From IMG/VR virus record IMGVR_UViG_3300044619_001509: DNA of 64,000 nt. One strand, given 5' to 3'. How positions within the stretch are numbered: position 1 is the stretch's first letter; the number at the start of each line of letters is the position of its first letter. Shown one piece after another: positions 1-64,000 of the stretch. Origin of the DNA: an uncultured virus (IMG/VR IMGVR_UViG_3300044619_001509) (taxonomy: Duplodnaviria > Heunggongvirae > Uroviricota > Caudoviricetes). The notes beneath the pieces were generated by a model. The model searched no databases, was not told the origin of the DNA, and saw nothing but the letters and a program-made list of their open reading frames with translations. The position numbers and the translations under genes were made by a program.

Positions 1-1476
1 TTTGATGCCAATACAGATCCTGCTAATTCTGAAAATGGACAAATTTTGAGTTATGCTTGTGGGCCATTTGAAATAAAACAAGGTGTTCTAAACACGATTA
101 GTTATAATGTTCAAGAATCAAATCAGGAATTTTTGGTTACAGACAAGAATACGGATAAAGATTCCATTCGTGTCTTTGTATTAAATTCCATCACCGATAC
201 AACAGGATTGAATATTCCTTGGACAGTTTCTACAGATATCACTTTATTGGATGAAAATACCAGAGCATTTTTTCTAGAAGAAAATAGTTATGGACAATTG
301 GTTTTGACATTTGGTGATGGAGTTCTTGGTAAAAAATTAGAAATTGGAAATGTTGTTATTATTGAATATTTAAGTACATTTGGTTCTGTTGCAAACGGTA
401 TAGGAAGAAGTGATACCGCAACAAAAAGATCTTTTACATTTGATTCAGATAATATCTTTACCGTGTTTACAATCGAACCATCCAATTCGGGTGCGGATCG
501 TGAAACATCTGGTTCCATTAAGAGAAATGCTGTTAGAAATTTGACATCAAAGGGAAGAGCAGTAACGATAAAGGACTACGAAGGATTGGTGATTGGTTCT
601 TTCAATGATGGTGCTGCTGTTCGTTGTTGGGGCGGAGAAGAAAACGATCCGCCATATTATGGTAAGGTATTCATGTCTGTTCGTCCTGTTGGACAGACCA
701 TTTTGACATCAGAAGATAAAACAAATCTTGTCAACAATATTTTAAAGGAAAAAAATATTGTCGGAATGGATGTGGTAATTGTTGATCCAGAGGTATTGTA
801 TATTAATCCTGTGGTTGAGATTTTCTACGAAAAAGCATTGACAAAAGATTCCGAATCAACTTTGATGAACAGAATTAAAAATTCATTGGTTGTTTATTTT
901 AGACGCAACTTAGTGGAATTTGGCGACTCCATATTTTCCACGGATGTCGAGAATGATATTATGGGTATTACACCAGCATTCAAGAGTGTTGATGTTAATA
1001 TGACTATCGAAAGAAGAATTGTTCCGACACTGGGAGTTTCGGAAAGAACAACAATAGATTTTCAAAATGAATTGTACCACCCCTATGATGGTTATCAATC
1101 AATTATCAAGACAAACAAGTTTCAAATTTCTCAAAACTCAGATTACCATTACATCGAAGACGATGGAAATGGAAAATTGCTATTAAAAAAAATCAAGAAC
1201 GGTGTGGTTTCTACTGTAAATAGTAATTATGGAACAATTGATTATACCACAGGCAAATTAATTATAACCGCATTAAAAGTATATACAATTGAAAACAACT
1301 CAAGTTATGTTTATATTAGAGCAGAACCAAAGACAAATAATATATTTACAAAAAGAAATTCTGTTTTGAGTTATGATTTCTTAACAGACTCGGCTCTACA
1401 AATCAACTTAAATCAAGTAAAAACTCAACAAGTAATCGGTGGTTCTGGAACAGTAATTACAAGGCCTAACTTCTAA
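1..1476 (+). CDS. gp6: Baseplate wedge subunit, T4 gp6-like (5'-truncated by window edge)
   Basis: Frame open from base 1; gp6 motifs FGDGVLGKKL, RAVTIKDYE, WGGEENDPPYYGKVF, GTIDYTTGK; precedes gp7/gp8-like genes. Confidence 0.9.
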   Translation, partial: FDANTDPANSENGQILSYACGPFEIKQGVLNTISYNVQESNQEFLVTDKNTDKDSIRVFVLNSITDTTGLNIPWTVSTDITLLDENTRAFFLEENSYGQLVLTFGDGVLGKKLEIGNVVIIEYLSTFGSVANGIGRSDTATKRSFTFDSDNIFTVFTIEPSNSGADRETSGSIKRNAVRNLTSKGRAVTIKDYEGLVIGSFNDGAAVRCWGGEENDPPYYGKVFMSVRPVGQTILTSEDKTNLVNNILKEKNIVGMDVVIVDPEVLYINPVVEIFYEKALTKDSESTLMNRIKNSLVVYFRRNLVEFGDSIFSTDVENDIMGITPAFKSVDVNMTIERRIVPTLGVSERTTIDFQNELYHPYDGYQSIIKTNKFQISQNSDYHYIEDDGNGKLLLKKIKNGVVSTVNSNYGTIDYTTGKLIITALKVYTIENNSSYVYIRAEPKTNNIFTKRNSVLSYDFLTDSALQINLNQVKTQQVIGGSGTVITRPNF

Positions 1477-3284
1477 TGCCAACTAATTTATTATTACAAT
1501 ATCCTGTTCAAGATACCGTATTGTTTTCTGACACGCTTCGTGTCAATTACAAACTATCGTCATATAGTGATCCAAATGTAAAATCTGTGTACTTTGAGTT
1601 GGATGGATCAACACAAACTGTTTTGGTTTCAACAGAATCTGTAACATTTACTGGACTTACAGAAGGTAGTCATACTCTCAATGGTTATCTTATTGACAGA
1701 CGAAATAATTCGATTCCCAATACTAATTTTTCGGTTTCGTTTCAAACATTTGATTCGGAATTGAGCGTTGAAAACAAGTTAACTCTTGTTCTGGAATCTA
1801 CTATTCCAGGCTTTGTCAGAGAAGATTATCCAAACTTTGTGATGTTCCTAAAGGCATATTACGAATGGTTGTACTCTTCCAACAATCCTTTCTATGCACC
1901 ATTAATATCTGAAGATTTCAAGGACATTGATAAGACACCAGAATATTTTGTAAAATATTTTAAAGAACAATATCTAAAAGATTTTCCTGAGTATTTAACT
2001 TTAGATAAGCAAACAGGTTCTCCATTAAACCTAAAGACTCTCATCAAGAATGTGGGAGAGTTTTATTCATCAAAGGGAACCGAAAGATCCATAAAGTTCC
2101 TGTTGAAAATTCTATATGATACTTATTCGGAAGTTTATTATCCAAGAAAAGATCTTTTCCGTTCGTCTGATAGTAAATGGAATAAAAGAAAATCAATTAA
2201 GTTTACTGGGGATAATGTAAATATTAATGATATCAAGCAAAGAGAATTGGTTCAGAAAATAGGCGAATCAATTACTTGGAGATCGTCGGTTGTTGATATT
2301 CAATGTTACCACGCAGTTAATAAAAAAATAATTGAAGTCTTCTATCAAGAAATTAACGGAACTCCTAATTTTAATTATCCCTTCCAAGTAATTACTGAAA
2401 ATGAAACCATATCACTAAATCCTCTTCGTGTGGTTTCTGATATTAACATAACAAATTCTGGTATTAATTATAGAACAAATGATGTAATTAAGATACAAAA
2501 AGTCTATACAAATCAAGAACCCGTTGATGTTTCTGTTGCTTTAGTGGTAGAGGTGGATGAATATGGACAGATTCAAAAAATAGAAATTGCAAACTTCTTG
2601 ACTGTTGAAGATGTTGAAGGTGAGTATTACTTTGAAATCACTTCGAATATTGGATCTGGAGCCGTTCTGGTTCCAGTGGAAGGTTATATCTGTGATTACG
2701 CAGGCTATTGGACGCAAAAGAATTCTCATGCAAGTTCGATCAAAGTTCTTCCAGATAACTTAAAGTATCAAGAATTATCATATGTCGTAAGAACGAATAG
2801 AAGTTTAGACAAATATGTTGATGCTTTGAAAAAATTGGCGCATCCTGCGGGGTTTGCTGTTGTTGGTGATGTTGTATTACAAAATCAAGTGGTCGAACCA
2901 GTAGAAATTGAAGATGCGTTGTTGAATTTCTTTACACCGCTGATCGGTAATTATGCTGCGTATAGATTAAAAACTTCAATTAATATCAGAAATGCTCCAA
3001 GACCAAGTGATTCGAATATAGATCTTTATCCAGATGGATATGATCCAAATGTTTCTATTAAATTACAAAATGGAACAGATACAACTGCACATATTCCAGT
3101 TAATAAAATTAATACAAATGTAGCAAATACAAAATTTAAGCATCTTCCATCGGTTTCCGATATTGCAAATAAAAATATATATTGGGTTGTATACCCACAT
3201 CCGAATGGTGAAATAAATAATTCTACAAATATAGAACGCTTTGTGGATATTCAACTGAAAGACTTCTTAAAGCAAGAAAAATAA
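1476..3284 (+). CDS. gp7: Baseplate wedge protein, gp7-like, with N-terminal Ig-like extension
   Basis: PGFVREDYPNFVMFLKAYYEW, FYSSKGTERSIKFL, YQELSYVV, KKLAHPAGF match T4-like wedge initiators; lies between gp6 and gp8. Confidence 0.7.
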   Translation: MPTNLLLQYPVQDTVLFSDTLRVNYKLSSYSDPNVKSVYFELDGSTQTVLVSTESVTFTGLTEGSHTLNGYLIDRRNNSIPNTNFSVSFQTFDSELSVENKLTLVLESTIPGFVREDYPNFVMFLKAYYEWLYSSNNPFYAPLISEDFKDIDKTPEYFVKYFKEQYLKDFPEYLTLDKQTGSPLNLKTLIKNVGEFYSSKGTERSIKFLLKILYDTYSEVYYPRKDLFRSSDSKWNKRKSIKFTGDNVNINDIKQRELVQKIGESITWRSSVVDIQCYHAVNKKIIEVFYQEINGTPNFNYPFQVITENETISLNPLRVVSDINITNSGINYRTNDVIKIQKVYTNQEPVDVSVALVVEVDEYGQIQKIEIANFLTVEDVEGEYYFEITSNIGSGAVLVPVEGYICDYAGYWTQKNSHASSIKVLPDNLKYQELSYVVRTNRSLDKYVDALKKLAHPAGFAVVGDVVLQNQVVEPVEIEDALLNFFTPLIGNYAAYRLKTSINIRNAPRPSDSNIDLYPDGYDPNVSIKLQNGTDTTAHIPVNKINTNVANTKFKHLPSVSDIANKNIYWVVYPHPNGEINNSTNIERFVDIQLKDFLKQEK

Positions 3285-3285
3285 A

Positions 3286-5637
3286 ATGTCAAATTATCTA
3301 AAACAAACCTTCAAAACAGAACTTGCCTTGGCATTTGCAGAATCTTTTGCTGCGGACAGTTCCGACAATTATTTTTTATTCTTGGGAAAAGCCTCTGCTT
3401 GGAACGATGAACAAAATCCACCAGCGGCACAGGATACACTTCGTGAAGAATTGGATGCTTGGAGAAATATGATGGCTCTTGCAAAGATTAATAAAAGTAA
3501 TGTAATGGTTGGAGTTGCTCGTTATAATTGGCAATACAATAAAGTATTTGACCAATTTGATGATACGGTTGATTTGTACCAAGAAGGGAACGAATTCCAT
3601 TTTTATTGTATAACGGATGATTTAAATGTATATAAATGCATTTCGAATAATTACGGAAGACCATCTTTGTATAAACCAACTACGGTTTCGACAGAAGAAC
3701 AAATAACTCAAGATGGATATGTCTGGAAGTTTTTGTTTAAAGTGCGAGAAGAATTAAATGAATTTTTAACAGATGATTTTATTCCAATTGAAAAATTAGA
3801 ATCTATTCTTTATAATGACGAAAGAAATCTTCAGAACAATGTAAAGATCACTGCTGTTCCTAGTTCAATTGATAATATCATTGTGACTCAATATGGCGGT
3901 TCCTATCCTTTAGCAATCACAACCGATCCATCAAATACAGATCAGAAACATACAATTACCGAAGTAATCAATTCAAATACATTTGTTCTTGCTCCTGTAT
4001 TCGACTTAGATAAAACAAATGGTATTTACAATGACTACTATGAACTTTATATTGCTCAGGGGCCAGGAGCAGGAAGCAAAGCAACCATTCTTTCCTACAT
4101 CGTAGATGAAAACGAAATTACTGTGGTTGTGGATAAAGCATTATCTCTTACAACGAGCAGTGTTTATAGAATCTACCCTAAAATAGAAATAACAGGAGAT
4201 GGAACGGGAGCGACAGCGATTCCTGTTATGAACGAGGATAAGGTCATTACTGGAATTGATGTTATCAATTCTGGCAAAAATTATCGTTATGTTACAGTAA
4301 AAGTATACAGAAAGAATGAATCATATGCTTCTGTCACACTAGCAAGAGCAATCTTGGCTCCCGTCTATGGCCACGGATATAATGCTATTCGTGAATTGGG
4401 TGCAAACTATGTGGCGATTCATATACCACTTCGTAATTCGGAAAAAATATCACAAGCGGATGCGGTGAATATTTTAAATAATGATTACCGTCAAGTTGGT
4501 ATTTTAAAGAATGCATTTTATAATAATGAAAATACATTGACACCAATCACAACAGAAGAAAATCTTGCAACATTTTTGCAGATAGAAAATATCAATTCAT
4601 ATAGTGTAATTTATTTAGAAACAACCCAGATTATTACCGATAATACAGGAACAAAGATTTCTGTGGGTGATATTATCAAGCAAGGTTCTGAGCAAAATGC
4701 ATATCAAGCAAGAGGAATCATCAAGTCAATTATTTTGGATGAAGGAACTTCTGCTCTGAATAATTACCGTATCACAGTTCAAAATACAAATGGTAGATTC
4801 TTGTCTACATCTTCCAGTACCTATCCTCTGTTAAAAGAAGACGATTCTGTGATTTCTGGAACAATTACTGGAGTCGATTCTTCAAATTTTTACGATCAAA
4901 ATACATTCTTAGCAAATAAAAATATTATTGGAACCACAAGCAACGCAACGGCAAAAGTAGTGAAGTGGGAATGTGATCCTTATGGGTTGTCTGGAAAATT
5001 GTTTATTAATAATATAAATGGATCGTTTATAGATTCTTATTGGACGAAATCCACAGGTGGGGAAATTGTTCTTGTGAAGGGAGAAAATATCGTATCTTAC
5101 GATAGTATCATTTCAACCCCAACAAATACTGATTTGGACAATGATGGTGATGTAGATTCTGCTGATTTGGCGATCTTACTTTCTTCGTGGACAGGGCCGC
5201 AATTCTCTGGAAGCGATCCTTCCAAATCGGGAATTATTGCAGATATTGGAACCTTAGAGGGAGAGAATAAGGTATTCTATAAAGTATCAACAACTTTAAA
5301 TGTTGTACCTACTTCTGGGGTTCTAACTGGAACTATGTTTGAACCAGATGACATTATTGTAAATTCTTCTGGAGTGCAGGGAAGAGTTATATCATTTGCT
5401 CTAAATACTAGTAGTTCTGGTACTTTAGAGGTAAATGCCTTAACGGGTTCCTTTGCTGTAAATGATGTACTGTCTATTTTGACGAATACTGAAATTTCTA
5501 CAAACGCTAGAATCTCAACCATCGTCCAACCAGAAGTATTACCATTTTACGGAGATGTGATATACATACAGAATGTAGTGCCAGTAACTGCTGCAACAGA
5601 TTCAGAAGAACACATAAAAGTCTTACTTAAGTTTTAA
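3286..5637 (+). CDS. gp8: Baseplate wedge subunit, gp8-like
   Basis: RYNW, VYKCISNN, DGYVWKFLF, NDYRQVGILKN and C-terminal GDVIYIQN...EHIKVLLKF are typical of cyanophage-type gp8. Confidence 0.85.
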   Translation: MSNYLKQTFKTELALAFAESFAADSSDNYFLFLGKASAWNDEQNPPAAQDTLREELDAWRNMMALAKINKSNVMVGVARYNWQYNKVFDQFDDTVDLYQEGNEFHFYCITDDLNVYKCISNNYGRPSLYKPTTVSTEEQITQDGYVWKFLFKVREELNEFLTDDFIPIEKLESILYNDERNLQNNVKITAVPSSIDNIIVTQYGGSYPLAITTDPSNTDQKHTITEVINSNTFVLAPVFDLDKTNGIYNDYYELYIAQGPGAGSKATILSYIVDENEITVVVDKALSLTTSSVYRIYPKIEITGDGTGATAIPVMNEDKVITGIDVINSGKNYRYVTVKVYRKNESYASVTLARAILAPVYGHGYNAIRELGANYVAIHIPLRNSEKISQADAVNILNNDYRQVGILKNAFYNNENTLTPITTEENLATFLQIENINSYSVIYLETTQIITDNTGTKISVGDIIKQGSEQNAYQARGIIKSIILDEGTSALNNYRITVQNTNGRFLSTSSSTYPLLKEDDSVISGTITGVDSSNFYDQNTFLANKNIIGTTSNATAKVVKWECDPYGLSGKLFINNINGSFIDSYWTKSTGGEIVLVKGENIVSYDSIISTPTNTDLDNDGDVDSADLAILLSSWTGPQFSGSDPSKSGIIADIGTLEGENKVFYKVSTTLNVVPTSGVLTGTMFEPDDIIVNSSGVQGRVISFALNTSSSGTLEVNALTGSFAVNDVLSILTNTEISTNARISTIVQPEVLPFYGDVIYIQNVVPVTAATDSEEHIKVLLKF

Positions 5638-5650
5638 CGGAGAGTAATTA

Positions 5651-12874: not shown

Positions 12875-13082
12875 AAAAATAAAAGTTGCGGATCGTGAAG
12901 ATGTGGTGAGAGATACCAAATCGGGTGCAATCTTAAATACTGATTTGGCAAGGGTAAATGAATATAAAAAAAGAAAAATTGAAATAAATAAGATTAAGCA
13001 GTTAGAGAACAAAATGAATTCTATAGAATCCGATGTTCGAGATATTAAGAGTATTTTACAAATTTTGCTTGAGAGAAAATAA
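12864..13082 (+). CDS. Small coiled-coil hypothetical protein
   Basis: 72-aa ORF (VRDTKSGAILNTD), overlapping the previous stop; similar small genes follow VrlC-like genes in T4-like phages. Confidence 0.65.
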   Translation: MSSEKIKVADREDVVRDTKSGAILNTDLARVNEYKKRKIEINKIKQLENKMNSIESDVRDIKSILQILLERK

Positions 13083-13085
13083 TCA

Positions 13086-24421: not shown

Positions 24422-26371
24422 ATGGCATTTCAAGTAAGCCCTGGCGTACAAATACGAGAATTTGATCTTACAGCAATTGTTCCTGCTGTAGCAACAACCC
24501 CTGCTGGTTATGTTGGAGTATTCCAATGGGGCCCAGCAGATCAAAGAGTCCTTGTCTCAACCGAAAAAGAATTAGAAAGTATTTTCTTTTCACCTCTTAA
24601 CAATCCTTACTATGCAACTTCGTGGTTAATGGCATCCAACTTTTTGGCATACGGTGGAAATCTTCAAGTAGTTCGTTATGTTAATTCTGTAACAGCAACA
24701 GTTGGATCAAGTACAAACTTTACGAGAAACAGTGGTCAATTTGATTTGAACGCAGTTTCTTTGATCGCAGGACCTGGTACAAAAGAAACACTAACTTCTG
24801 GTGATACAATTGTTACCATTAAGAATCGCGAACATTACGAATCTATAACAATCAATGGTGTAACGACTCCATTCGAAAACGCATTTCTTGCAAGATATCC
24901 AAGTAGATTGGGTAATAATTTGGCAGTTGTTGTTTTGATGCCTACCGATTCTGCAAATCCTTGGGCAACAGAATTCGCAGGCGCTCAAGCAGCAGCAACA
25001 GGAACAATTGGAAATAATTTCACAGCAGCAACTCTTGCTTCTGCGGTGTTCAATTCCATAAGAGCATTCCCAAACACAACACAACAAGCAGCAACTCTTG
25101 GATTCAGTAGAGACGAAATTCATATTGCTGTTATTGACATTAACGGTTCATTCTCTGGTGTTGCTGGTGAAATATTGGAATTGTACGAAGGTCTATCGGT
25201 TGCTTCCGATGCAACAAACGCAGACGGTACTACGAATTATTGGCAAAATGTCATCAATAACAGATCGCAATACATCTATGCTGGTGATATTGGAAGTCAA
25301 ATTCGCTTCAAGTCAACAGGATTGGCATGGGGTTCTGCTTTTGCAACTTCTGCTCCTGGCGGATTCCGTATTGGTTATACAGATAGAACAACACAAACCA
25401 ACGAAACATTTGCTACATTCTACTTTGACGGTGGAACAAATGCAACATTTACTACAAATGCAGTGGCATATTCAAATATAAATGTAACTCTGTCTGCTAA
25501 TATTTTAGCAGAATATCAAGACATGTTTGGTGATCCAGATGAGTCTGATGTTTCGTTGTTGATTGGTTATAACACAACAAGCACAACCGATACGAGCAGT
25601 CTAATTGCAATTGCAGAAAACAGAAAAGATGCAATTTGCTTTGTGTCTACTTGCTACGATCTTGGTAATGTTGGTGGATCTAGAACAACAATTAAGAATG
25701 CAATTACAGCTTTTGCAGATCTTTTAGGTTCAACATCTTACGGTGCTTTGGATTCTGGTTACAAGTACCAATACGATAGATTCAATAATGTTTATCGTTA
25801 TGTTCCACTTTGTGCCGATAGTGCGGGGTGTGCGGTAAGAACAGACAACCAAAAGGATCCTTGGTTCTCGCCAGCAGGATATGATCGCGGTAGAATTTTG
25901 AATGTTGTGAAGTTAGTGTTCAACCCAAATCAAGCAGAACGCGACGAACTTTACAAGAAAAATGTAAATCCTGTAATTACATCTCAAGGATTTGGTGTAA
26001 TTCTGTTCGGTGATAAGACTCTACAGAAGAAACCAAGTGCATTTGATCGTATCAATGTTCGTAGATTGTTTAATGTTCTTGAGAAGTCAATTGCGACTGC
26101 TGCCAAGTTCCAACTCTTCGAATTCAACGATGCGTTCACTCGTTCGCAATTCAAGCAACTTGTTGAACCATTCTTGCGCGATGTTCAAGGAAGAAGAGGA
26201 ATTACTTCTTACGCAGTTGTATGTGACGAAAGTAACAATACACCATCAATTATTGATGCAAACAGATTTGTTGCTGATATTTTCGTTGCACCAAACCGTT
26301 CGATCAACTTCATTCAACTTAACTTCGTGGCAACTCCAACTGGAGTATCTTTCGCGGAATATGGTGGATAA
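24422..26371 (+). CDS. gp18: Tail sheath protein
   Basis: SPGVQIREFDLT, FQWGP, PWFSPAG..RG, AFDRINVRRLF, FEFNDAFTR, RSINFIQLNFVA. Confidence 0.96.
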   Translation: MAFQVSPGVQIREFDLTAIVPAVATTPAGYVGVFQWGPADQRVLVSTEKELESIFFSPLNNPYYATSWLMASNFLAYGGNLQVVRYVNSVTATVGSSTNFTRNSGQFDLNAVSLIAGPGTKETLTSGDTIVTIKNREHYESITINGVTTPFENAFLARYPSRLGNNLAVVVLMPTDSANPWATEFAGAQAAATGTIGNNFTAATLASAVFNSIRAFPNTTQQAATLGFSRDEIHIAVIDINGSFSGVAGEILELYEGLSVASDATNADGTTNYWQNVINNRSQYIYAGDIGSQIRFKSTGLAWGSAFATSAPGGFRIGYTDRTTQTNETFATFYFDGGTNATFTTNAVAYSNINVTLSANILAEYQDMFGDPDESDVSLLIGYNTTSTTDTSSLIAIAENRKDAICFVSTCYDLGNVGGSRTTIKNAITAFADLLGSTSYGALDSGYKYQYDRFNNVYRYVPLCADSAGCAVRTDNQKDPWFSPAGYDRGRILNVVKLVFNPNQAERDELYKKNVNPVITSQGFGVILFGDKTLQKKPSAFDRINVRRLFNVLEKSIATAAKFQLFEFNDAFTRSQFKQLVEPFLRDVQGRRGITSYAVVCDESNNTPSIIDANRFVADIFVAPNRSINFIQLNFVATPTGVSFAEYGG

Positions 26372-26421: not shown

Positions 26422-27177
26422 ATGGCAGACTCAAGCATTAATTCATTTATGACAAACTTTGACGGTGGTGCAAGACCAAATCTTTACACCTTCGTCTTAG
26501 CATGTCCTGGTCTAGCAGTATTAAATCCACAATTTGCACAACTTCAGTTTTTCTGCCGCAGTACACAGCTTCCTGCTTCTGTACTTGGAGAAATTACTGT
26601 ACCGTATTTGGGAAGACAAGGTAAGTATCCTGGCGATAGAACCTTTGAAGATTTTACGATTACCGTAATCAACACTCAAGATATGAATCTTCGTAGAGTG
26701 TTTGAATTCTGGCACGAAAACTTCAACACATACGCAGGAAACTCAACTTCGTATCCCAATCCAAGACAAATATTTGGTACTGCGGTTGTGACACAACTCA
26801 ATAAGGCATACCAACCAGTTCGTGCATATCAGTTGTTTGATATGTTCCCAAGAGATGTATCATCTGTTGATTTGGCATATGATAACAACGATACTGTTTC
26901 TGAATTCTCAGTAACTTTCGGATATTCATACTTTGTTACTGACAATTCTCCTGCAAACAGTGCCGCTGGAGTTGGTGGTCAAGGATTACTCAATCCTGGC
27001 GCATATGTTCCTGGTCTTGCTGGTTCTGGAAATGGATTCGGTTTTGGAAACAACGGATTTGGTGGTGGACAAGGATTTGGAGTATCGTTCGGTTCTGGAC
27101 CTAGTGGATCGGGATTCTCGTTTGGATATGGTAATGGTAATTCTGGATTTGGTTTTGGTTACGGTAAGAGTAATTAA
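26422..27177 (+). CDS. gp19: Tail tube protein with Gly/Phe-rich C-terminal extension
   Basis: GGARPNLY, FFCRSTQLP, PGDRTFEDFTITV, FPRDVSSVDL.YD, EFSVTFGY; about 75 extra C-terminal residues. Confidence 0.92.
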   Translation: MADSSINSFMTNFDGGARPNLYTFVLACPGLAVLNPQFAQLQFFCRSTQLPASVLGEITVPYLGRQGKYPGDRTFEDFTITVINTQDMNLRRVFEFWHENFNTYAGNSTSYPNPRQIFGTAVVTQLNKAYQPVRAYQLFDMFPRDVSSVDLAYDNNDTVSEFSVTFGYSYFVTDNSPANSAAGVGGQGLLNPGAYVPGLAGSGNGFGFGNNGFGGGQGFGVSFGSGPSGSGFSFGYGNGNSGFGFGYGKSN

Positions 27178-41757: not shown

Positions 41758-43473
41758 GTGATAACATTTAAGAGTATAAAATGGAAAAATTTCCTAAGTA
41801 CGGGAAATACATTTACTGAAATCGACTTTCTCAAGGCAAATACAACTTTAATCAACGGATCTAATGGAGCAGGAAAAACAACTCTTTTGGATGCGTTGTG
41901 TTTTGTATTGTTTGGTAAACCGTACAGAAACATTAATATTCCGCAACTCGTCAATTCGATCAACGAAAAAGATTTAAGAGTTGAGATAGAGTTTAATGTG
42001 GAACAAACTGAATATAAAATTATTCGTGGTCTTGCGCCTAAAATTTTTGAGATATACAAGAATGGTACTCTCATAAACCAAGACGCAAAATCAAAAGATT
42101 ATCAGCAAATGTTTGAGACTCAAATTCTTAAAATGAACTACAAGTCTTTTTGTCAGGTAGTTATTTTAGGTTCAACAAACTATACTCCTTTTATGCGTCT
42201 GAGTGCTGCGGACAGACGAGCAATCGTTGAAAGCCTATTGGACATCAATATATTTTCAACCATGAATACAATACTTAAAGGTAAAATGTCAACCCTTAAG
42301 GATGAGATGAAAGAAATTGATATGTCGGTTAAGTTGCTCAAGCAGGAGCAGGATAGTCAAGAAAAATTCATAGAAAACTTAAAAAACAATAGTAAATCTA
42401 CTTTAGATAAGCATTCTGTTGAACTGAAGAATTCTATGAATCAAATATCCGAATTGACTGAGGATATACAAAATTTAAATAATAGACTGACAGAATATTC
42501 AGAAAGTATTGCAGACAGCGCAAATACAAACAAGTCCAAGACAAAACTCATTTTGCTGCAAGATCAGATTGAAGTAAATGTAAAAGCAGCACAAAAGAGT
42601 CTCAAGTTCTATGAAACTAACAATACCTGTCCAACTTGCTCACAGAATATAGAGGAGCAAGTAAAGTGCAAGCACATTGAAGAAAAAACAAATGCTATTG
42701 CAGAATATACTAATGGATTGACTGAACTAGAACAAAAAATTAAAGATATTGACAACGAACTAATTCAGATAGAGATTGCAAATAAAAAAATCTTAAATCT
42801 CGAAAAAGAAATATCAAGTAAAAATAGTTTGTTGGTGAGTACGACAAAGTACATGAAAAAGATTCAATCGGAAATAGATGAATTAAATCAAGATAAAGAA
42901 AATATTGAAAAAGAAGAGCAGTTGTTAACTGATATTCGTAGTAAATGGAATGATGCAAACGAAAAGCGTAAAATGCTTTTGGAAGATTCTTATTATTACA
43001 CTTTAATCAGTAGTCTTATCAAGGATGGTGGAATAAAGGCCAAAATCATTAAGCATTATCTTCCAATCATGAATAAAATTATTAATAATTATTTGTCTCA
43101 TATGAATTTCTTTGTTAAGTTTGAACTAAATGAGAACTTTGAAGAATCGATTAAAAGCAGACATCGTGATGATTTTACCTACGATAGTTTTAGTGAAGGT
43201 GAAAAAAGAAAAATTGATCTTGCTCTTTTGTTTGCATGGAGAGCAACCGCTCAGTTAAAGAATTCTGTAAATTGTAATCTGATGATTTTTGATGAGGTTC
43301 TTGATGGTAGTCTGGATGATTCATCTATTGAATCTTTCCTAGATATTTTGAAAGGACTAAAGAAAACAAGTAATATTATTGTAATAAGTCATAAACCAAA
43401 AGAACTATTACAAGACAAGTTTGAAAATCATATTACATTTATTAAAAAGAATAACTTTAGCGTTATGCAATGA
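41758..43473 (+). CDS. gp46: Rad50/SbcC-like recombination ATPase
   Basis: WKNFLSTGN, GSNGAGKTT, zinc hook CPTC, FSEGE, IFDE, ISH. Confidence 0.96.
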   Translation: MITFKSIKWKNFLSTGNTFTEIDFLKANTTLINGSNGAGKTTLLDALCFVLFGKPYRNINIPQLVNSINEKDLRVEIEFNVEQTEYKIIRGLAPKIFEIYKNGTLINQDAKSKDYQQMFETQILKMNYKSFCQVVILGSTNYTPFMRLSAADRRAIVESLLDINIFSTMNTILKGKMSTLKDEMKEIDMSVKLLKQEQDSQEKFIENLKNNSKSTLDKHSVELKNSMNQISELTEDIQNLNNRLTEYSESIADSANTNKSKTKLILLQDQIEVNVKAAQKSLKFYETNNTCPTCSQNIEEQVKCKHIEEKTNAIAEYTNGLTELEQKIKDIDNELIQIEIANKKILNLEKEISSKNSLLVSTTKYMKKIQSEIDELNQDKENIEKEEQLLTDIRSKWNDANEKRKMLLEDSYYYTLISSLIKDGGIKAKIIKHYLPIMNKIINNYLSHMNFFVKFELNENFEESIKSRHRDDFTYDSFSEGEKRKIDLALLFAWRATAQLKNSVNCNLMIFDEVLDGSLDDSSIESFLDILKGLKKTSNIIVISHKPKELLQDKFENHITFIKKNNFSVMQ

Positions 43474-43919
43474 AATTAGCCACTCTTGATGATTACGAAG
43501 ACATTATAAAAATATTTTACGAAAATCGAAGCATCTTTCCACACATTCGTACAGATTACTTAAAGCGAATGATAGAATCCAAAAAGTGTTTCTATAAAGA
43601 TGGAGTTGTGATAACATTTAATCAGTATAAACGAACCAATAAGATTGGAAATGTTTATGCGAATAAAAATTCATACACCATTAAGCAAATAGTAAACAAA
43701 TATAAAGGTAATGGGAAAGCAGCAGAAATATTAAAAGAGTTCTTGCAATCCATCCAAGAACCTGTATACTTGTCGGTGCGAGCAGATAATGTTCGTGCAA
43801 ATTCGTTTTACAAAAAGATGAATTTTGAATTAGTTGGAACAATCAATTGGAAAAACGGTACAATACCAGGCCATGTCTACCTCTACTCAGAAACCACGCC
43901 CAGAATACGAACGAAATGA
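43470..43919 (+). CDS. GNAT-family acetyltransferase
   Basis: QIV...KGNGKA (motif A) and LSVRADNVRANSFYKKMNF (motif B). Confidence 0.8.
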   Translation: MKLATLDDYEDIIKIFYENRSIFPHIRTDYLKRMIESKKCFYKDGVVITFNQYKRTNKIGNVYANKNSYTIKQIVNKYKGNGKAAEILKEFLQSIQEPVYLSVRADNVRANSFYKKMNFELVGTINWKNGTIPGHVYLYSETTPRIRTK

Positions 43920-45474
43920 TCATGTCATCAATTCGGAAATAAATGTTTGTTTTGAAGATTTACTTGCAATGACACCTGATGAGTTTAAAAATTGGGTCAT
44001 CAAAATGCGAGAAGTTATTCGTGAAGCATGGGACACTCATGGGTGTCCTCCACGAACAGGTAAAAATCAAGATGAGATTGTTGATGCTTTCAATCGACTA
44101 GAATCTTTTCCTGTTCATGAATTTGAGTTCAATGATGAACTAGAAAACAATTCTTATCCCGATGTTATTATAAACAAATCGCGGGTTGGTGTAGAAGTCG
44201 ATCAGTGGTTTTCTAACATGTTCAAGACGAGAATCAATTATAGTGAAAAGGACAATGGGTATTCAATCTACGATCTAATTGCCGATCCAAATAAATTGGA
44301 TCGTGTAGTCAAAGGTTGTATGCGTCATTTGAGGAGAGATTCTTTCTATTCTCATGCTCTTTCTGCAATAAAACATTCTACCAAGTATTCGGTTGTGGAT
44401 GTTGCCACAGGTGACGAATGGATGGAAGCATTCTTCAATAATCCTTCTATATTTGAAGGACACGATTTCATGTTGGAGCAAATCAAACCAAAGATCGGAA
44501 TGAATAGTGGTTACTTTCAATTAGATCAGTCTGACATTTTAGTATTATCAAAAGAACAAGTAGAAAAGTGGAAAGAAAAAATGTCATACAGGCATCATTC
44601 CACTTTCGATATTAGTAATATGCCTGATGATAAAATTTATTCTATACGACTTTACAGAAAGGGAGAAAAAGTTTTTCCTTCTGGATTTAAATGTTTTAGA
44701 ATAGGTTACATTCAACCCGCAGTAAATTTTCCACCATTAACAGCAAAGTACCTTTATGAAAGATTTACAAATCATATTTATCAAGATCAAGTGGTTATTT
44801 TCGATCCTTCTAGCGGTTGGGGTGGTCGTATTTTGGGTGCTATGTCTATTTCTGATGATACCTGTGTCCATTATGTGGGTACTGACCCAAATACCGATAA
44901 TTTTCCAAATAGCTTGGAACGATACGGCAAATACGGTAGTCTCGCGGATTTCTACAATCAAAAAACATATCGCGGCAATTCGATCTTCACGCCACCAAAC
45001 ACCTACGAAATCTTCATGCTTGGATCAGAAGTCATTGGAGATTCTGAAGGATTCGCCAAGTACAAAGGAAAAGTGGATTTAGTATTTACCTCTCCTCCCT
45101 ATTTTAATCGTGAAGCATACTCAGAAGATCCAACTCAATCCTATAAGAAATTTTCTAATTTTGATTCGTGGGTAGAGGGATTTTTGCGTCCAACTCTCAA
45201 GAATTGCGTAGAATCATTACGCAAAGATAGATATCTTTTATGGAATATATCGGATCTTTTAATTAAGGGAGAGTATCTACCACTTGAAAAAGCAAGTCGA
45301 GATATTCTCGAAGAATATGGTATGAGATATGAATACACCCTCAAAATGGCTTTGGAACCCATGCCAGGTCAAAATCGTGTAGATGAAGATGGTATTCCTA
45401 AATGTAAAAATTACTGTAAAGTAAATGGTAGGATGCTAAAGTACGAACCCGTTTTTGTATTTTACAAACCTTGA
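43873..45474 (+). CDS. DNA amino-methyltransferase (N4-C/N6-A type)
   Basis: SAM-binding FDPSSGWGGR (~44800) and catalytic FTSPPYF (~45085); start uncertain. Confidence 0.75.
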   Translation: MSTSTQKPRPEYERNDHVINSEINVCFEDLLAMTPDEFKNWVIKMREVIREAWDTHGCPPRTGKNQDEIVDAFNRLESFPVHEFEFNDELENNSYPDVIINKSRVGVEVDQWFSNMFKTRINYSEKDNGYSIYDLIADPNKLDRVVKGCMRHLRRDSFYSHALSAIKHSTKYSVVDVATGDEWMEAFFNNPSIFEGHDFMLEQIKPKIGMNSGYFQLDQSDILVLSKEQVEKWKEKMSYRHHSTFDISNMPDDKIYSIRLYRKGEKVFPSGFKCFRIGYIQPAVNFPPLTAKYLYERFTNHIYQDQVVIFDPSSGWGGRILGAMSISDDTCVHYVGTDPNTDNFPNSLERYGKYGSLADFYNQKTYRGNSIFTPPNTYEIFMLGSEVIGDSEGFAKYKGKVDLVFTSPPYFNREAYSEDPTQSYKKFSNFDSWVEGFLRPTLKNCVESLRKDRYLLWNISDLLIKGEYLPLEKASRDILEEYGMRYEYTLKMALEPMPGQNRVDEDGIPKCKNYCKVNGRMLKYEPVFVFYKP

Positions 45475-49385: not shown

Positions 49386-49387
49386 TT

Positions 49388-50746: not shown

Positions 50747-50747
50747 A

Positions 50748-53911: not shown

Positions 53912-53938
53912 CATTTTTGAAATAAGGTAGTATATATT

Positions 53939-54454: not shown

Positions 54455-54455
54455 T

Positions 54456-54776: not shown

Positions 54777-57288
54777 TATTGGAATTCGTGGTAACAATAT
54801 TCTTTACAGGGGTTACGAAAACGGTAAAAGAGTCCATGAAAAGGTTGCTTTTTCCCCTACTCTGTTTGTTCCCACAAATAAAAAAACCATATACAAAACC
54901 CTTTTTGGTCAGCACCTAGAACCGTTTAAGCCTGGTTCTATTAACGATTGTCGTGACTTTTTAGATCGGTATTCGGATGTCGATAATTTTGACATTTACG
55001 GAAATACTGACTACAAATATCAGTTTATTGCTGAAGAATTTTGTCACGAACTGGAGTATGATATTGACAAATTTAATGTGGCATACATAGATATAGAAAC
55101 CAAATGTGAAGAGGGCTTCCCCGATGCAAATGTCGCCAATGAAGAAATTATTGTTATTACTGTTCGCATGGGGAGTACTATTTATACCTTCGGACTTAAT
55201 GATTTTGGCGCTGTTTCTAATAACCATGAATGTTATGTCTTCAGAAGCGAATCAGACCTCCTCGAATCATTCCTAGAATTTTGGGAACAAAAAGACATTG
55301 ATATAGTAACTGGTTGGAATATCAACTTTTTTGATATTCCTTATCTTATTAATAGAATCAATAAGATTTTGGGTGACGGGGAAGCAAAAAGACTTTCTCC
55401 GTGGAATCATATCAAGGAAAGAATTGTTACGGTAATGCAGCGAGATTATACTGTGTATGATCTTGTTGGTATTTCTACTCTTGATTATTTTGATCTTTAT
55501 CGAAAGTTGACATTTGTAAACCGTGAATCATACAAGTTGGATCATATTGCATATGTCGAACTTGGTGAAAGAAAGACTTCATATACCGAATATGACAGTC
55601 TAAGAGACTTCTACACAAAGAACTTTCCGAAGTTTGTCGAGTATAATGTGCGAGATGTTGATCTTGTCGTTAAACTTGAGGAAAAATTGAAGTTGATGGA
55701 ACTTGCTCTGAGAATTGCTTATTCGGCAAAAGTAAACCATAACGATATCTTCTCACAAGTAAAGACTTGGGATCAGATCATTTATCATCATTTGAACTCT
55801 CAAAACATTATTATTCCTCTAAAGAAAGAACAAGAGGAAAAGGAAGACAAGTTTATTGGTGCGTATGTAAAGGAACCCGAAGTCGGAATGCACAAATGGA
55901 TCGCATCGTTTGACTTGGATTCTTTGTATCCACATTTGATTATGCAGTATAATCTTTCGCCAGAAACTATCACATCGGATGGTGCAAGAAATAGTTTTTC
56001 TGTTGATGATGTTTTGGATGAAACAAATAAATTTAAAACATCCATGAAGAGATACTCATCAAAAGATTTGTCTGTCGCAGCAAACGCAACGACCTATCGC
56101 AAAGATAAGCAAGGGTTCTTACCAAAGTTGATGGAAACTTTGTACGAAGAGCGAAAGATGTTTAAAAATAAAATGTTGGAAGCAAAAGCAAAACTTGCCA
56201 AACTTCCCGATACTGCTACGGTTGAAGAGAGGAGCAAACTGAAGAAAGAGATTGCAAAGAATCACAACTTCCAGTTGGCAAGAAAGATTCAACTTAACTC
56301 GGCTTTCGGTGCAATTGGAAATCAATATTTTAGATACTTTAACTTGGATATTGCGGAAGCAATTACTTTGTCGGGTCAATTGTCGATTCGTTGGATTGAA
56401 ACCTGTCTAAACGATTACATGAACAATGCAGTCGGAACAAAAAACGAAAACTATGTTATTGCCAGTGATACAGATAGTATTTACTTGCGAATGGATACAT
56501 TGGTTAATAAAGTATTACCAAATGATACGGACGAGAAAAAAGTAAAGTTTTTGTTGAATGTTTGTGATAAAGCACTACAACCGTTCATTGAAGAAAAATA
56601 CCAAGGATTAGCAACCAAAATGAATGTATATGCACAGAAAATGCATATGAAGCGCGAAGCGATTGCAAACAAAGGTATTTGGACTGCCAAGAAACGATAC
56701 ATGTTAAATGTAATGGTTGGTGAAAGTGGAGTAATACTCAAGACACCCGAACAAAAGATTCTGGGTGTCGAAACCGCACGATCATCTACGCCAGAAATTG
56801 TTCGTGATGCATTGGGTGATTGTATTAATATTATTCTCAATGGTACGGAAGATGAGATGAGAGAATATATTGCGAACTTTGAAAAGAAATTCAACGAATC
56901 TTCAATTGAAGATGTTTCATTCCCTCGCGGATGTAATGGAATGGAAAAGTATGCAGATTCTACACTAATCTACAAAAAATCTACTCCAATTGCAGTAAAG
57001 GGTGCATTGCTGTATAATAACTTTATACGCAAGAACAAACTTCAAAAGAAGTATTCTCTGATCAAAGATGGAGAAAAGATAAAATTTGTTTATCTGAAGC
57101 AACCCAACACGATTGGTGGTTCTGTTGTTTCTTTTGTGGGAAGAGTCCCCGATGAATTTGACTTGAGACGATTTGTGGATTTTGACAAGCAGTTTGAGAT
57201 TTCATTCAAAGAACCGCTCTGTAATATTTTAAATGTAATTGGTTGGAAATTTAAAAAGGAAAACACTCTTGAATCCCTGTTTGCTTGA
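54751..57288 (+). CDS. gp43: Family B DNA polymerase
   Basis: Exo DIET, GWN..FFD, YNVRD; polymerase FDLDSLYP, KIQLNS.FG, SDTDS, KKRY; C-terminal clamp-binding TLESLF. Confidence 0.97.
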   Translation: MSNQKIYTNIGIRGNNILYRGYENGKRVHEKVAFSPTLFVPTNKKTIYKTLFGQHLEPFKPGSINDCRDFLDRYSDVDNFDIYGNTDYKYQFIAEEFCHELEYDIDKFNVAYIDIETKCEEGFPDANVANEEIIVITVRMGSTIYTFGLNDFGAVSNNHECYVFRSESDLLESFLEFWEQKDIDIVTGWNINFFDIPYLINRINKILGDGEAKRLSPWNHIKERIVTVMQRDYTVYDLVGISTLDYFDLYRKLTFVNRESYKLDHIAYVELGERKTSYTEYDSLRDFYTKNFPKFVEYNVRDVDLVVKLEEKLKLMELALRIAYSAKVNHNDIFSQVKTWDQIIYHHLNSQNIIIPLKKEQEEKEDKFIGAYVKEPEVGMHKWIASFDLDSLYPHLIMQYNLSPETITSDGARNSFSVDDVLDETNKFKTSMKRYSSKDLSVAANATTYRKDKQGFLPKLMETLYEERKMFKNKMLEAKAKLAKLPDTATVEERSKLKKEIAKNHNFQLARKIQLNSAFGAIGNQYFRYFNLDIAEAITLSGQLSIRWIETCLNDYMNNAVGTKNENYVIASDTDSIYLRMDTLVNKVLPNDTDEKKVKFLLNVCDKALQPFIEEKYQGLATKMNVYAQKMHMKREAIANKGIWTAKKRYMLNVMVGESGVILKTPEQKILGVETARSSTPEIVRDALGDCINIILNGTEDEMREYIANFEKKFNESSIEDVSFPRGCNGMEKYADSTLIYKKSTPIAVKGALLYNNFIRKNKLQKKYSLIKDGEKIKFVYLKQPNTIGGSVVSFVGRVPDEFDLRRFVDFDKQFEISFKEPLCNILNVIGWKFKKENTLESLFA

Positions 57289-58561
57289 TCTTGTAGATGA
57301 AATTAAAAAATGTGCAGACTCAAATGGACTTCCTATCATACCTTACGATAAGTGGAATGATATGAATAACAATTATTCCAAGCAGGATATTAAAGATGCT
57401 CTTGCTTATTACATTGTTACAGAAAAACCAAAGTTTCCATTTCGTGAGATAGAGGAGTCTGAAGCGGCAAAGAAGTTTCATAGACTCTGTAAGGAAGATT
57501 ATAATAAGTTTTATATTCCTAGATCTTTGTTGCACACAAGAGATGTTCTTGAAAAATATGATGATTACAAGTATCCCTTTTCTGTTTATGGAAACGGACT
57601 AATACAATTTGGTCATTACTATAATGATATTAGTAATATCTTTCAGCAAGAAAATCGATACTCTTGTGGATCATATGGATTTGCTGCGCCACTTGAGATT
57701 TGGAAAGATGAACAACTTCTTCGTAAGATGAACTATACATTTTGGAGATTGGGTAACAAGAGCGTAGGACTTCACAATTGGAGAGGATCTTTTCGCTTGG
57801 GTGCTTATGTTGCAACTCAATTTAAACCTCATGTTGCAAAGACAATATATGATTTAACCAAAGCAAAATCTGTCATGGATACGAGTTGTGGATGGGGAGA
57901 TCGTCTTGCTGCATTTTATGCTTCGAACGCATACGAATATTATGGTTGCGATCCAAACGAAAAAGTATTTGAAACATACAAAAAACAATGTGTTTGGTAT
58001 GAAAAACAATTAGGTTGTAATGAACCCTATATCAAAGAAGAAGAAGATTATTTCTTTTGTTGGGGTAAAAAGTATGTGGTGATACACAGAAAACCCGCAG
58101 AAGATATAGATTGGAATACTAGATCCAATCCAATTGATTGTTTATTTACTTCTCCTCCATATTTTTCTACGGAACTTTACAATAGGGGTGGAGAAAACGA
58201 AAAAGATCAATCATGGGCCAGATACATTGAATATAGTAACTGGAGAGATGGGTTCTTGTTTCCAATGCTAACAAATGCATGGAAAGTAATCAATGATGGG
58301 GGATATGTAATGATTAATATTATGGATCCTGTTATTGGTGGAATAAGATACAGAACTTGCGATGAAATGGTTGACTTTATGTGCAATCAACTAGGAGCAA
58401 ACTTTATTGGTCAAATTGGCATGAGAATCAAACAAAGACCAAAAAAGACAAACGATCTGTCTGCTTTCCTAGAAAAAGATTTTATTGAAAATATTTGGTG
58501 CTTTGGTAAAGGGGTTGACAAACTACCTACTAATGGTACACTAGAAAACTATATGGAGTAA
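57269..58561 (+). CDS. Second DNA amino-methyltransferase (N4-C/N6-A type)
   Basis: ATQFKP.VAK, MDTSCGWGDR, FTSPPYF; TTG start after AAGGA. Confidence 0.75.
   Translation: MNPCLLDLVDEIKKCADSNGLPIIPYDKWNDMNNNYSKQDIKDALAYYIVTEKPKFPFREIEESEAAKKFHRLCKEDYNKFYIPRSLLHTRDVLEKYDDYKYPFSVYGNGLIQFGHYYNDISNIFQQENRYSCGSYGFAAPLEIWKDEQLLRKMNYTFWRLGNKSVGLHNWRGSFRLGAYVATQFKPHVAKTIYDLTKAKSVMDTSCGWGDRLAAFYASNAYEYYGCDPNEKVFETYKKQCVWYEKQLGCNEPYIKEEEDYFFCWGKKYVVIHRKPAEDIDWNTRSNPIDCLFTSPPYFSTELYNRGGENEKDQSWARYIEYSNWRDGFLFPMLTNAWKVINDGGYVMINIMDPVIGGIRYRTCDEMVDFMCNQLGANFIGQIGMRIKQRPKKTNDLSAFLEKDFIENIWCFGKGVDKLPTNGTLENYME
58515..58542 (+). promoter_or_regulatory. Sigma70-type early promoter for uvsX-gp41
   Basis: TTGACA-16 nt-TACACT with TGn. 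Confidence 0.7.
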
Positions 58562-58563
58562 AT

Positions 58564-59631: not shown

Positions 59632-59632
59632 T

Positions 59633-61048: not shown

Positions 61049-61235
61049 AAAGCAATACAAGCAAGTCCAGTACATCAACGCGAACGATAATCGTTCGTTT
61101 GATGAAAAATTTAAGACTCTTCCCTTTGTACGCGAAGAAGACCTTGAAGAGTGGAAAAATTGGTGGGAAGGTTTAATGAATCTTCGCAACGAAGCGAATG
61201 CTAATAATCAGTATTTCAAAACAAATAAGCGATAA
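61041..61235 (+). CDS. Small hypothetical protein
   Basis: 64-aa ORF overlapping both neighbours. Confidence 0.55.
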   Translation: MNEKQYKQVQYINANDNRSFDEKFKTLPFVREEDLEEWKNWWEGLMNLRNEANANNQYFKTNKR

Positions 61236-63544: not shown

Positions 63545-63547
63545 ATA
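63540..63547 (+). promoter_or_regulatory. Late promoter CATAAATA
   Basis: Overlaps the thyX stop; ATG of the next gene begins 7 nt after the box. Confidence 0.55.
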
Positions 63548-63553
63548 CTGTAC

Positions 63554-64000
63554 ATGAATAATTTTAAGAATTACCTAAAAGAATCCTCAATTGAACCAGC
63601 AAAACTAAGTTCTGGTAATTATTCAATTGGCGACAAGTTTAGGTTAATGACTAAAATTGCGGGTACAAATTACGATAAAGATCATGTATTTACCATAACC
63701 GAGAACGATGACCTTTCAAAGATTATCAAACTTGGTGGTATTGGTGAATACTCTTTTTTTGACGAAAATAACACAAAAATAACATTACATGCTGGTCCTC
63801 AAATAATTGATGGTTTATTTGAGCATATTCCACCACCTCCCGTAGAAGAACAACCCCCAAGCGTTCAAATAATTCGTGAAACTATAATTCAACCAACTGT
63901 AATTGAAAAAATTATAGAAAAAGTTATAGTAGAAAAACCTGTCCGTGGCCCTATGGGGCCAGTTGGACCACAAGGTGAAAAGGGAGATACTGTTTTTCTG
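63554..64000 (+). CDS. Collagen-repeat protein (3'-truncated; not in ORF track)
   Basis: Open to the window end: MNNFKNYLKE...HIPPPPVEE...IEKIIEKVIVEKPVRGPMGPVGPQGEKGD. Confidence 0.7.
   Translation, partial: MNNFKNYLKESSIEPAKLSSGNYSIGDKFRLMTKIAGTNYDKDHVFTITENDDLSKIIKLGGIGEYSFFDENNTKITLHAGPQIIDGLFEHIPPPPVEEQPPSVQIIRETIIQPTVIEKIIEKVIVEKPVRGPMGPVGPQGEKGDTVFL

Follow-up and report, generated by a model that had tools for sequence, protein, structure and literature searches.

A flanking-base rule at CCWGG sites of an uncultured T4-like phage and its possible origin in a GCC-context DNA mark

Results

Genomic context of the CCWGG sites

The stretch of DNA analysed here, IMG/VR record IMGVR_UViG_3300044619_001509 of an uncultured member of the Caudoviricetes (64,000 bases, GC content 35.3%; referred to in its entirety as the window), covers about one third of a phage genome and shows a close relationship between the pentanucleotide CCWGG and its neighbouring bases, with a G immediately upstream or a C immediately downstream at 32 of its 35 CCAGG or CCTGG sites. 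Pfam and PHROG scans of its 55 open reading frames (ORFs), which all lie on the + strand and make the window 98.6% coding, identified a T4-like myovirus with its structural and replication modules. Among those recognised are genes for baseplate and neck proteins, terminase, sheath, tube, the portal protein gp20 and the capsid protein gp23 and, on the replication side, UvsY, UvsW and UvsX, gp46/47, gp45/44/62, RegA, gp43, gp41 and ThyX. The major capsid protein shares at most 54% identity with that of any cultured phage among those listed. Positions 5651-12874 are taken up by a single ORF of 2407 amino acids, which contains DUF4815 repeats and eight of the 35 CCWGG sites and probably encodes a giant protein of the baseplate or of a fibre.

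The stretch is present, as a whole or in part, in 20 public runs, all of them stored in the form of assembled contigs, and originates from lake-water metagenomes. The IMG/VR record G001 stems from the same phage, as it is 100% identical over positions 1-14717 of the window and adds ~5.3 kb upstream. This record and the loci L081, L161 and L162 were all assigned to the phage of the window, and none of them was counted as independent.

CCWGG is retained next to a 5' G or a 3' C

A sequence-only reading of the window had proposed that CCWGG is tolerated almost exclusively as GCCWGG or CCWGGC, and a program count returned exactly the numbers it had given (35 sites, 32 of them flanked), with its five example sites all present within one base (1806, 5741, 12152, 45364 and 58720). 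The two contexts are indeed reverse complements of each other, and the choice between them is either-or at the sites of the window. The flanked sites, all in the form CCW-GGN on the + strand, are located at positions 1806, 4063, 5741, 6389, 6458, 7034, 8351, 11912, 12152, 13245, 14676, 17726, 22152, 23430, 24440, 25355, 26629, 26995, 27847, 28261, 31834, 35598, 36583, 41558, 43866, 45364, 48584, 48789, 49275, 51886, 54931 and 58720. The three exceptions, all CCTGG on the + strand, lie at 24773..24777 in the tail sheath gene (ACCTGGT; GGA CCT GGT ACA) and at 26506..26510 (TCCTGGT; TGT CCT GGT CTA) and 27010..27014 (TCCTGGT; GTT CCT GGT CTT) in the tail tube gene, the second of them being preceded by Cys, a residue without a G-ending codon.

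Compared with a null of 2000 synonymous-codon shuffles within genes, flanked sites are in clear excess (32 observed versus a mean of 12.4; standard deviation 2.9, maximum 22), and unflanked sites are nearly eliminated (3 versus 32.2; standard deviation 4.0, minimum 17), with a total of 35 sites versus 44.7 (standard deviation 4.2). The flanked fraction amounts to 0.91, as opposed to a shuffle mean of 0.28 (maximum 0.50). The bias thus persists under the codon-preserving shuffle that this reading had suggested as a check, with neither the flanked nor the unflanked count ever reached. The additional ~5.3 kb of the same phage in G001 contain seven more CCWGG sites (18 in locus L201 minus 11 shared), all of which are flanked. 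Pooled logos of 117 and 138 oriented sites revealed no motif beyond position -1.

Codon choice at Pro-Gly pairs and other avoided sites

All 35 sites share one frame, with CCW-GGN encoding a Pro-Gly pair on the + strand, and no Pro-Gly pair in the window is encoded as CCC-GGN or CCG-GGN. Because CCC-GG and CCG-GG both contain CCGG, which is absent from the window, a Pro-Gly pair must contain CCWGG, which leaves freedom only at the third positions of the Gly codon and of the codon before the pair. GGC makes up 85 of the 1236 Gly codons overall and 19 of the 35 that follow Pro, as anticipated by the sequence-only reading, and it is used at none of the 13 sites with a G before CCW but at 19 of the 22 sites without (Fisher p = 3.8e-7). 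A G-ending codon precedes 13 of the Pro-Gly sites, compared with 6.5 expected, and at the eight sites whose preceding residue lacks any G-ending codon, GGC is found seven times. These reverse-complementary alternatives point to recognition at the level of double-stranded DNA.

In the same type of shuffle, several other sites prove to be avoided in the window. CCGG (0 observed versus 47.4 expected), CCSGG (0 versus 9.7), ACGT (0 versus 151.6), CCATGG (0 versus 8.6), GGTACC (0 versus 9.3) and GTGCAC (0 versus 5.6) are absent, and AGCT (31 versus 153.4), CTGCAG (1 versus 15.0) and AGTACT (2 versus 15.4) are depleted; GGCC (33 versus 26.4), GCGC (46 versus 46.4) and GATC (274 versus 245.1) are not avoided. 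No flank rule is apparent among the 31 surviving AGCT sites. CCSGG is missing because CCGG itself is missing; the aside of the sequence-only reading on ScrFI-type CCNGG restriction is only partly apt.

The rule recurs in separate lineages of related phages

Flanking is complete in the related contigs G002 (62/62 CCWGG sites; 97 kb), G003 (35/35; 47 kb) and G005 (20/20; 20 kb examined) and in Melnitz, a cultured OM43 myophage that possesses a cytosine C5-methyltransferase (C5-MT) and a TET gene (68/68; 141.5 kb). Intermediate values were obtained for G007 (37/56; 109 kb), G008 (30/44; 128 kb), G009 (38/69; 109 kb) and G010 (31/45; 95 kb), which, like G002, carry MTase(a), a methyltransferase-like gene of the window described below. 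The SAR11 myophage HTVC008M (147 kb) does not avoid CCWGG and has 24 of 136 sites flanked. Codon shuffles within ORFs again yielded an excess of flanked sites and a complete lack of unflanked ones in G002 (56 versus 23.6 and 0 versus 62.7 expected, respectively), Melnitz (61 versus 22.1 and 0 versus 56.3) and G003 (33 versus 7.1 and 0 versus 25.8). In G002, the nine CCWGG sites outside the Pro-Gly frame are all flanked as well. In a quick maximum-likelihood tree of capsid proteins with 89 rows, among which three row pairs represent the same contig twice, all-flanked genomes fall into at least six separate groups, with chance-level groups in between. Judged by these sequences, the rule recurs in independent phage lineages.

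Across 80 loci fetched through MTase(a) (1.02 Mb), the ratio of observed to expected CCWGG sites is 1.19 for flanked (288/241) and 0.19 for unflanked sites (93/478), so that MTase(a)-carrying loci as a group deplete only unflanked CCWGG; the corresponding ratios in 37 cyanophage-type loci, hand-picked from the capsid tree, are 1.21 and 1.31. Expectations for these pooled loci are based on base composition. For the control sites CCGG, CATG and GATC, the flanked-to-unflanked quotients of these ratios range from 0.94 to 1.24 in the MTase(a) loci. A separate behaviour was seen in G006, which depletes CCWGG (32 versus 75 expected from base composition) without following the G rule and whose surviving sites have a 5' C or 3' G in 21 of 32 cases (CCCWGG type). 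Neither MTase(a) nor C5-MT or TET was found in the 87 kb of this contig.

Pro-Gly pairs occur at 0.70 of expectation in the window, 0.52 in G002, 0.62 in Melnitz and 0.72 in G003, compared with 0.93-1.13 in G007-G010 and HTVC008M, in which CCGG is not banned or CCWGG is not avoided. The flanked contexts thus seem to serve as a refuge where one is needed, yet part of the Pro-Gly pairs appears to have been lost.

Flank rules at other palindromes

When all palindromic 4-mers and 5-mers (the latter centred on W or S) were scanned in loci of at least 9 kb, with duplicates of fetched contigs excluded, analogous rules emerged at other sites. In Melnitz, CCGG invariably has a 5' G or 3' C (15/15; 14 flanked versus 18.5 expected and 0 unflanked versus 38.2 expected within ORFs) and GCGC a 5' R or 3' Y (64/64; 58 versus 55.2 and 0 versus 12.5). 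GCGC is found only as GGCGC or GCGCC in G002 (39/39; 33 versus 35.1 and 0 versus 28.0) and G008 (63/63; 50 versus 40.9 and 0 versus 54.7), and all CTSAG sites of G003 have a 5' G or 3' C (17/17; 16 versus 15.7 and 0 versus 35.7). In these all-or-none cases, flanked sites are thus at neutral expectation in codon shuffles and unflanked sites are at zero. AGCT is absent from G002 and G008, with ~208 and ~243 sites expected, respectively, from codon shuffles. The common denominator is a trinucleotide that extends across flank and site, namely GCC in G002, G008 and the window and either GCC or GCT in Melnitz and G003; the GCGC rule of G002 and G008, taken together with their lack of AGCT, would fit a GCC-only mark. 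For G003, CTSAG and CCWGG jointly imply a GC[C/T]-type context, and no methyltransferase gene lies within the available 47 kb.

Broader contexts were considered and rejected. A mark at any GpC in phages of the window type is contradicted by AGCT, which has an internal GpC and is reduced to 31 of 153 expected sites in the window and to none in G002 and G008, and also by the need of GCGC for a flank in the latter two. A uniform dinucleotide mark (G followed by G or C) would leave the flank without effect, since CCWGG, CCGG and GCGC hold such dinucleotides internally. The prevalence of a 5' T at GGWCC in G002 (188/201) was read as Gly-Pro codon usage (GGW-CCA) rather than as a shield. The 204 ACGT sites of G008 show yet another pattern: they take the form AACGTA/C/G or GACGTA, with AACGTT, YACGTR and GACGTC absent and CACGTC present twice, which looks like the product of several 6-bp specificities or of a 5' A flank rule.

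Phages with proven or likely GC-context marks

Synechococcus phage S-B43 has been reported to carry 5-carboxymethylcytosine and its glycine amide at GC motifs, generated by CmoA, CmoX and CmoY, with ~75% of the GC in virion DNA bearing the glycine amide; its SpCmoX protein (PDB 8YF3) is described as the DNA cytosine C5-carboxymethyltransferase of this T4-like cyanophage and acts at GC motifs (Yang et al., 2025, PMC12783734). Its experimentally shown GC-context cytosine modification made S-B43 our positive control. The one strongly avoided 4-mer of S-B43 is CCGG (8 versus 323 expected from base composition), and all eight remaining copies are G-flanked (within ORFs, 6 flanked versus 37.7 and 0 unflanked versus 122.7 expected). 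The footprint is therefore present in a phage with a proven GC-context mark.

A comparable enzyme is predicted for Melnitz. Its gene annotated as an HhaI-type methylase matches SpCmoX (PDB 8YF3) over the whole length (E = 6e-76), and the next gene, a Tet_JBP dioxygenase gene by profile score (43 bits; cut-off 34.9), has no annotation in the Melnitz record and is listed as 'hypothetical protein'. Among the 15 records searched, PF12851 (Tet_JBP) was detected in Melnitz only. The region L206:4010-8090 of this genome (MZ577097.1) comprises the 'hhaIM modification methylase' gene, the Tet_JBP gene, a 427-aa ORF without family and a P-loop kinase-like ORF, and is likely to constitute a cytosine hypermodification cassette. 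The available sections of the Melnitz paper mention the methylase only as possible protection and do not describe the cassette as such. Phage C5-MTs located beside TET (5mYOX) clusters act mainly at GpC[C/T], and some of them at any GpC (Burke et al., 2021, PMC8256090); the rule followed by Melnitz at CCWGG, CCGG and GCGC is exactly the GpC[C/T] published there for C5-MT plus TET.

The OM43 strain used to isolate Melnitz also yielded the phage Venkman (MT375522.1, 38.6 kb). Profile searches of its genome revealed no PF00145, PF01555 or PF12851 gene, and it contains not a single CCWGG, CCGG, GGCC, GCGC, GATC or ACGT. Pro-Gly is absent from its proteins and Gly-Pro occurs once, compared with ~25 expected instances of each; restriction pressure has apparently cleared an entire proteome of two dipeptides. 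Melnitz keeps 94 GGCC and 64 GCGC sites, in which GC[C/T] is internal or gained from the flank. This contrast between two phages of one host strain suggests that the refuge provided by the flanking G belongs to the phage and not to the host enzymes, with the caveat that Melnitz and Venkman may meet different hosts in nature.

Candidate writer genes in the window

MTase(a), an SPPY amino-methyltransferase-like protein of 533 aa, is encoded at 43873..45474 on the + strand, between gp46 and RNase H. It has a motif I-like sequence (DPSSGWGG) near residue 311 and the sequence FTSPPYF near residue 406, preceded by an N-terminal domain of ~300 aa that belongs to no known family. Its PF01555 score of 27.6 bits narrowly exceeds the cut-off (26.7) and covers only profile positions 1-70 of 221; an NCBIfam search returned no match. 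Full-length identity to 26 aligned relatives is 65-78%, and D311, P312, S313, G315, W316, G317 and G318 as well as T406, S407, P408, P409 and Y410 are invariant in all 27 sequences. The structural model (predicted local distance difference test score, pLDDT, of 76) has only S-adenosylmethionine (SAM)-dependent methyltransferases as top fold matches, which are generic, and its predicted structural neighbours include the m2G enzymes Trm11 and TrmN, with their (D/N/S)PPY motif type. MTase(a) is present in all 80 related loci, which were fetched through MTase(a) itself. Among its carriers G002 and G007-G010, the available contigs contain PF00145 only in G010 and Tet_JBP in none; for G002 and G008, the lack of C5-MT and TET extends over 54% and 71% of the genomes, respectively.

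The start of MTase(a) overlaps a GNAT-type acetyltransferase-like gene (43470..43919, + strand; phrog_1249), which shows a weak rimI match below the cut-off. The overlap amounts to 47 bases from the first ATG at 43873, a start that yields a length in agreement with the relatives, and to 86 bases for the longer ORF 43834-45474 with its TTG start. Of the 62 related loci with sufficient room, 29 carry an acetyltransferase-like gene in the 1.6 kb preceding MTase(a); the gene is a possible partner of MTase(a), though variable in relatives.

A paralogue, MTase(b) (57239..58561, + strand; 440 aa), is encoded directly after gp43 and before UvsX, in the slot that harbours the C5-MT in Melnitz. It has FTSPPYF at residue 305, is ~30% identical to MTase(a) and 28-35% to MTase(a) homologues, and stays below the PF01555 cut-off of 26.7 bits with a score of 22.9 bits. 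Its family counts 1953 relatives, with source-given names that are all 'hypothetical protein' among the matches listed. Insertion of 7-deazaguanine was rejected as a source of the mark, as the TGT/DpdA family (PF01702) is found in 0/5 records.

A 5' G rule of another kind in HTVC008M

In HTVC008M (NC_020484.1), GATC occurs only as GGATC or GATCC (83/83, including 28 GGATCC), with 66 flanked sites versus 97.3 expected and no unflanked site versus 144.6 expected within ORFs. GANTC likewise occurs only with a 5' G (43/43; 0 unflanked sites versus 169 expected). The flanking G creates no GpC at either site. In the same genome, GCGC has a 5' R or 3' Y at 59/59 sites and CCGG a 5' G at 41/51 sites. 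The complete HTVC008M genome contains no PF01555, PF00145, PF02086, PF05869 or PF02384 gene, no TET and no TGT. Scans of bacterial genomes gave no match to the Melnitz methyltransferase, and those with the HTVC008M S21 protein returned 80 loci, mostly Planctomycetota by title and none of them bearing a SAR11 or OM43 title.

Discussion

Our analysis reveals a flank-dependent avoidance of CCWGG that is implemented through codon choice. We consider it probable that it reflects a phage-encoded mark in GCC context that shields CCWGG from restriction. Several host restriction enzymes would exert strong pressure on the DNA of this phage, in which ACGT and CCGG are eliminated and AGCT and several 6-mers depleted. 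Given the ban on CCGG, Pro-Gly pairs can only be encoded as CCA/CCT-GGN and always include CCWGG, which cannot be removed without a change in the protein. These sites are kept only as GCCWGG or CCWGGC, so that GCC spans the edge of the site on one strand or on both. The phage would mark its own DNA after replication at GCC, that is, at a GpC followed by C, and a mark on one strand in the outer part of the site may block double-strand cutting by a CCWGG-specific endonuclease, while unmarked HCCWGGD sites would be lethal and hence purged. The modification of this phage, its GCC context, the base that is marked, a CCWGG endonuclease as the selective agent and the writer enzyme are all elements that we infer. 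A shield in GC/GCC context had already been put forward in the sequence-only reading and is the best supported explanation by comparison with S-B43, Melnitz and Venkman only.

The two SPPY methyltransferase-like proteins are plausible candidates for the writer of a GCC-context mark. MTase(a), perhaps aided by the acetyltransferase-like gene beside it, or MTase(b) would be the favoured enzyme, with a C5-MT or CmoX-type gene outside the window as the alternative. More specifically, it is tempting to speculate, though we hold this tentatively, that the SPPY family represented by MTase(a) writes an undescribed GCC-specific mark, either on N4 of cytosine or on N2 of the paired guanine, which is possibly acylated by the product of the adjacent gene. 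Weighing against an assignment to the two SPPY proteins, the same footprint exists in Melnitz, which has no such enzyme.

Several observations speak against a shield as such. Three unflanked CCWGG sites persist in the window, and the MTase(a) carriers G007-G010 follow the rule only partly, with 14-31 unflanked sites each. There is no CCGG in the window even with a flanking G, so the proposed mark could not be effective against the CCGG enzyme, and the depletion of AGCT, a GCT context, requires a context more restricted than the GpC[C/T] reported for C5-MTs. None of the 55 ORFs of the window encodes a C5-MT (PF00145, E <= 1e-5), and none a TET, CmoA-like or CmoY partner enzyme. For MTase(a), a PDB sequence search with the C-terminal domain gave 0 matches and the fold matches are generic, DNA as its substrate being suggested by the position in the replication module and by the footprint. 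Most sites would be marked on one strand only, which is assumed to be sufficient. Finally, HTVC008M shows that a 5' G rule can arise by some unnamed route, and the existence of its rule without a recognisable methyltransferase keeps an explanation other than shielding alive for the window as well.

One rival retains the shield but places its writer, a cytosine C5-MT or carboxymethyltransferase of the CmoX or TET-associated kind, outside the 64-kb window, with the SPPY proteins serving another role. The nameable enzymes, those of S-B43 and Melnitz, are relatives of C5-MTs, a PF00145 gene occurs in G010, which belongs to the group sister to the window, and the window represents part of a genome to which G001 adds just ~5.3 kb. 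However, G002 and G008 follow a GCC-type rule with MTase(a) and without PF00145 or PF12851 in the sequenced shares of their genomes, the GCC-only context differs from the GpC[C/T] or GpCN reported in PMC8256090, and MTase(b) fills the very slot after gp43 in which Melnitz has its C5-MT. On balance, we regard this possibility as rather improbable.

We also judge it unlikely that no modification is involved and that the endonuclease itself recognises the 7-mer HCCWGGD, an edge G:C pair with 5' G stopping the cut. Degenerate outer positions exist in known enzymes, for example in GDGCHC, and a 7-bp specificity predicts what is seen, with flanked sites at or above neutral expectation and unflanked sites gone. 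The ACGT avoidances of G008, which resemble 6-bp specificities, and the HTVC008M rule can be counted on the same side. However, 'not G' would be needed independently for CCWGG, CCGG, GCGC and CTSAG enzymes in different hosts, and the rule is also found in S-B43 with its proven mark. Moreover, Venkman, which shares its host strain with Melnitz, retains neither CCWGG nor CCGG in flanked form and does without Pro-Gly entirely, and no enzyme of this specificity was found described in the literature. The difference between Venkman and Melnitz, the S-B43 control and the recurrence of the rule at other palindromes thus speak against an HCCWGGD endonuclease as the leading reading. A cause outside DNA recognition, such as a translational preference for the codon pair CCW-GGC or a mutational bias around Pro-Gly, is very improbable, since, although all sites encode Pro-Gly on one strand and strand alone leaves a cause at the mRNA level possible, the G-before and C-after solutions are mutually exclusive reverse complements, related phages use CCW-GGD freely (98/114 Pro-Gly pairs in HTVC008M and 34/47 in three cyanophage loci), G002 obeys the rule outside the Pro-Gly frame, other palindromes obey it too, and the 37 cyanophage-type loci show no depletion of CCWGG and chance-level flanking.

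A full-text literature search (CCWGG with phage avoidance; GCCWGG, CCWGGC and HCCWGGD), covering articles without their supplements, found no description of a flank-dependent avoidance rule among the matches listed, those to the flanked sequences being by title largely primer sequences or papers on other subjects, with motif-caller output in one of them, nor do the available sections of PMC8256090 and PMC12783734 describe one. Context-specific post-replicative cytosine marks of phages have been described only in 2021 and 2025, for a handful of enzymes (PMC8256090, PMC12783734). The observation made here is real and strong, and it may represent a GCC-restricted form of this recently described camouflage of phage DNA. 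If the footprint is the genomic shadow of such marks, their motif (GCN, GC[C/T] or GCC) could be read without chemistry, and the one-base flank rule would provide a general sequence-only readout that extends to thousands of uncultured phage contigs as well as to cultured phages such as Melnitz. A large freshwater clade of T4-like phages would then probably achieve the same effect with another enzyme family that is still uncharacterised. On the more tentative reading in which the SPPY family writes its own mark, this family would be a third route to GpC-context camouflage, unrelated in its enzymes to C5-MT/TET and CmoX, and HTVC008M would carry another unknown mark in GGA/TCC context that comes from no recognised methyltransferase family. 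Restriction would also shape proteins strongly, as Pro-Gly drops to 0.5-0.7 of expectation in rule-following phages and to zero in Venkman.

In its depletion of short palindromes relative to a codon-preserving null, the window resembles ordinary restriction-site avoidance. Unlike in the ordinary case, however, a single flanking base decides whether CCWGG is depleted, and sites of the tolerated class reach or exceed their expected number. As for the candidate enzymes, MTase(a) and MTase(b) share the SPPY motif IV, a glycine-rich motif I and the class I SAM-methyltransferase fold with PF01555 and (D/N/S)PPY enzymes (Trm11/TrmN), but differ in that motif I precedes motif IV and in the ~300-aa N-terminal domain, which matches nothing. 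S-B43 is likewise a T4-like aquatic phage with a G-flank footprint at its avoided site; it differs in using an enzyme family unlike the window candidates, in its reported targeting of any GC rather than GCC, and in that neither a cmoA nor an asparagine-synthetase-like gene is present in the window. The C5-MT plus TET clusters, for which the accessible text of PMC8256090 says nothing about a genome footprint, differ from the window in their enzymes, as the window has neither C5-MT nor TET and the available parts of G002 and G008 lack both, and in their GpC[C/T] context, as the window context looks GCC-only, with AGCT depleted or absent. What the two would have in common, the window side being a proposal, is a post-replicative phage cytosine mark at GpC followed by a pyrimidine, with evasion of restriction as its presumed role, and the word tolerated in the window, GCC, is one of the two target words reported for the C5-MT plus TET systems (PMC8256090).

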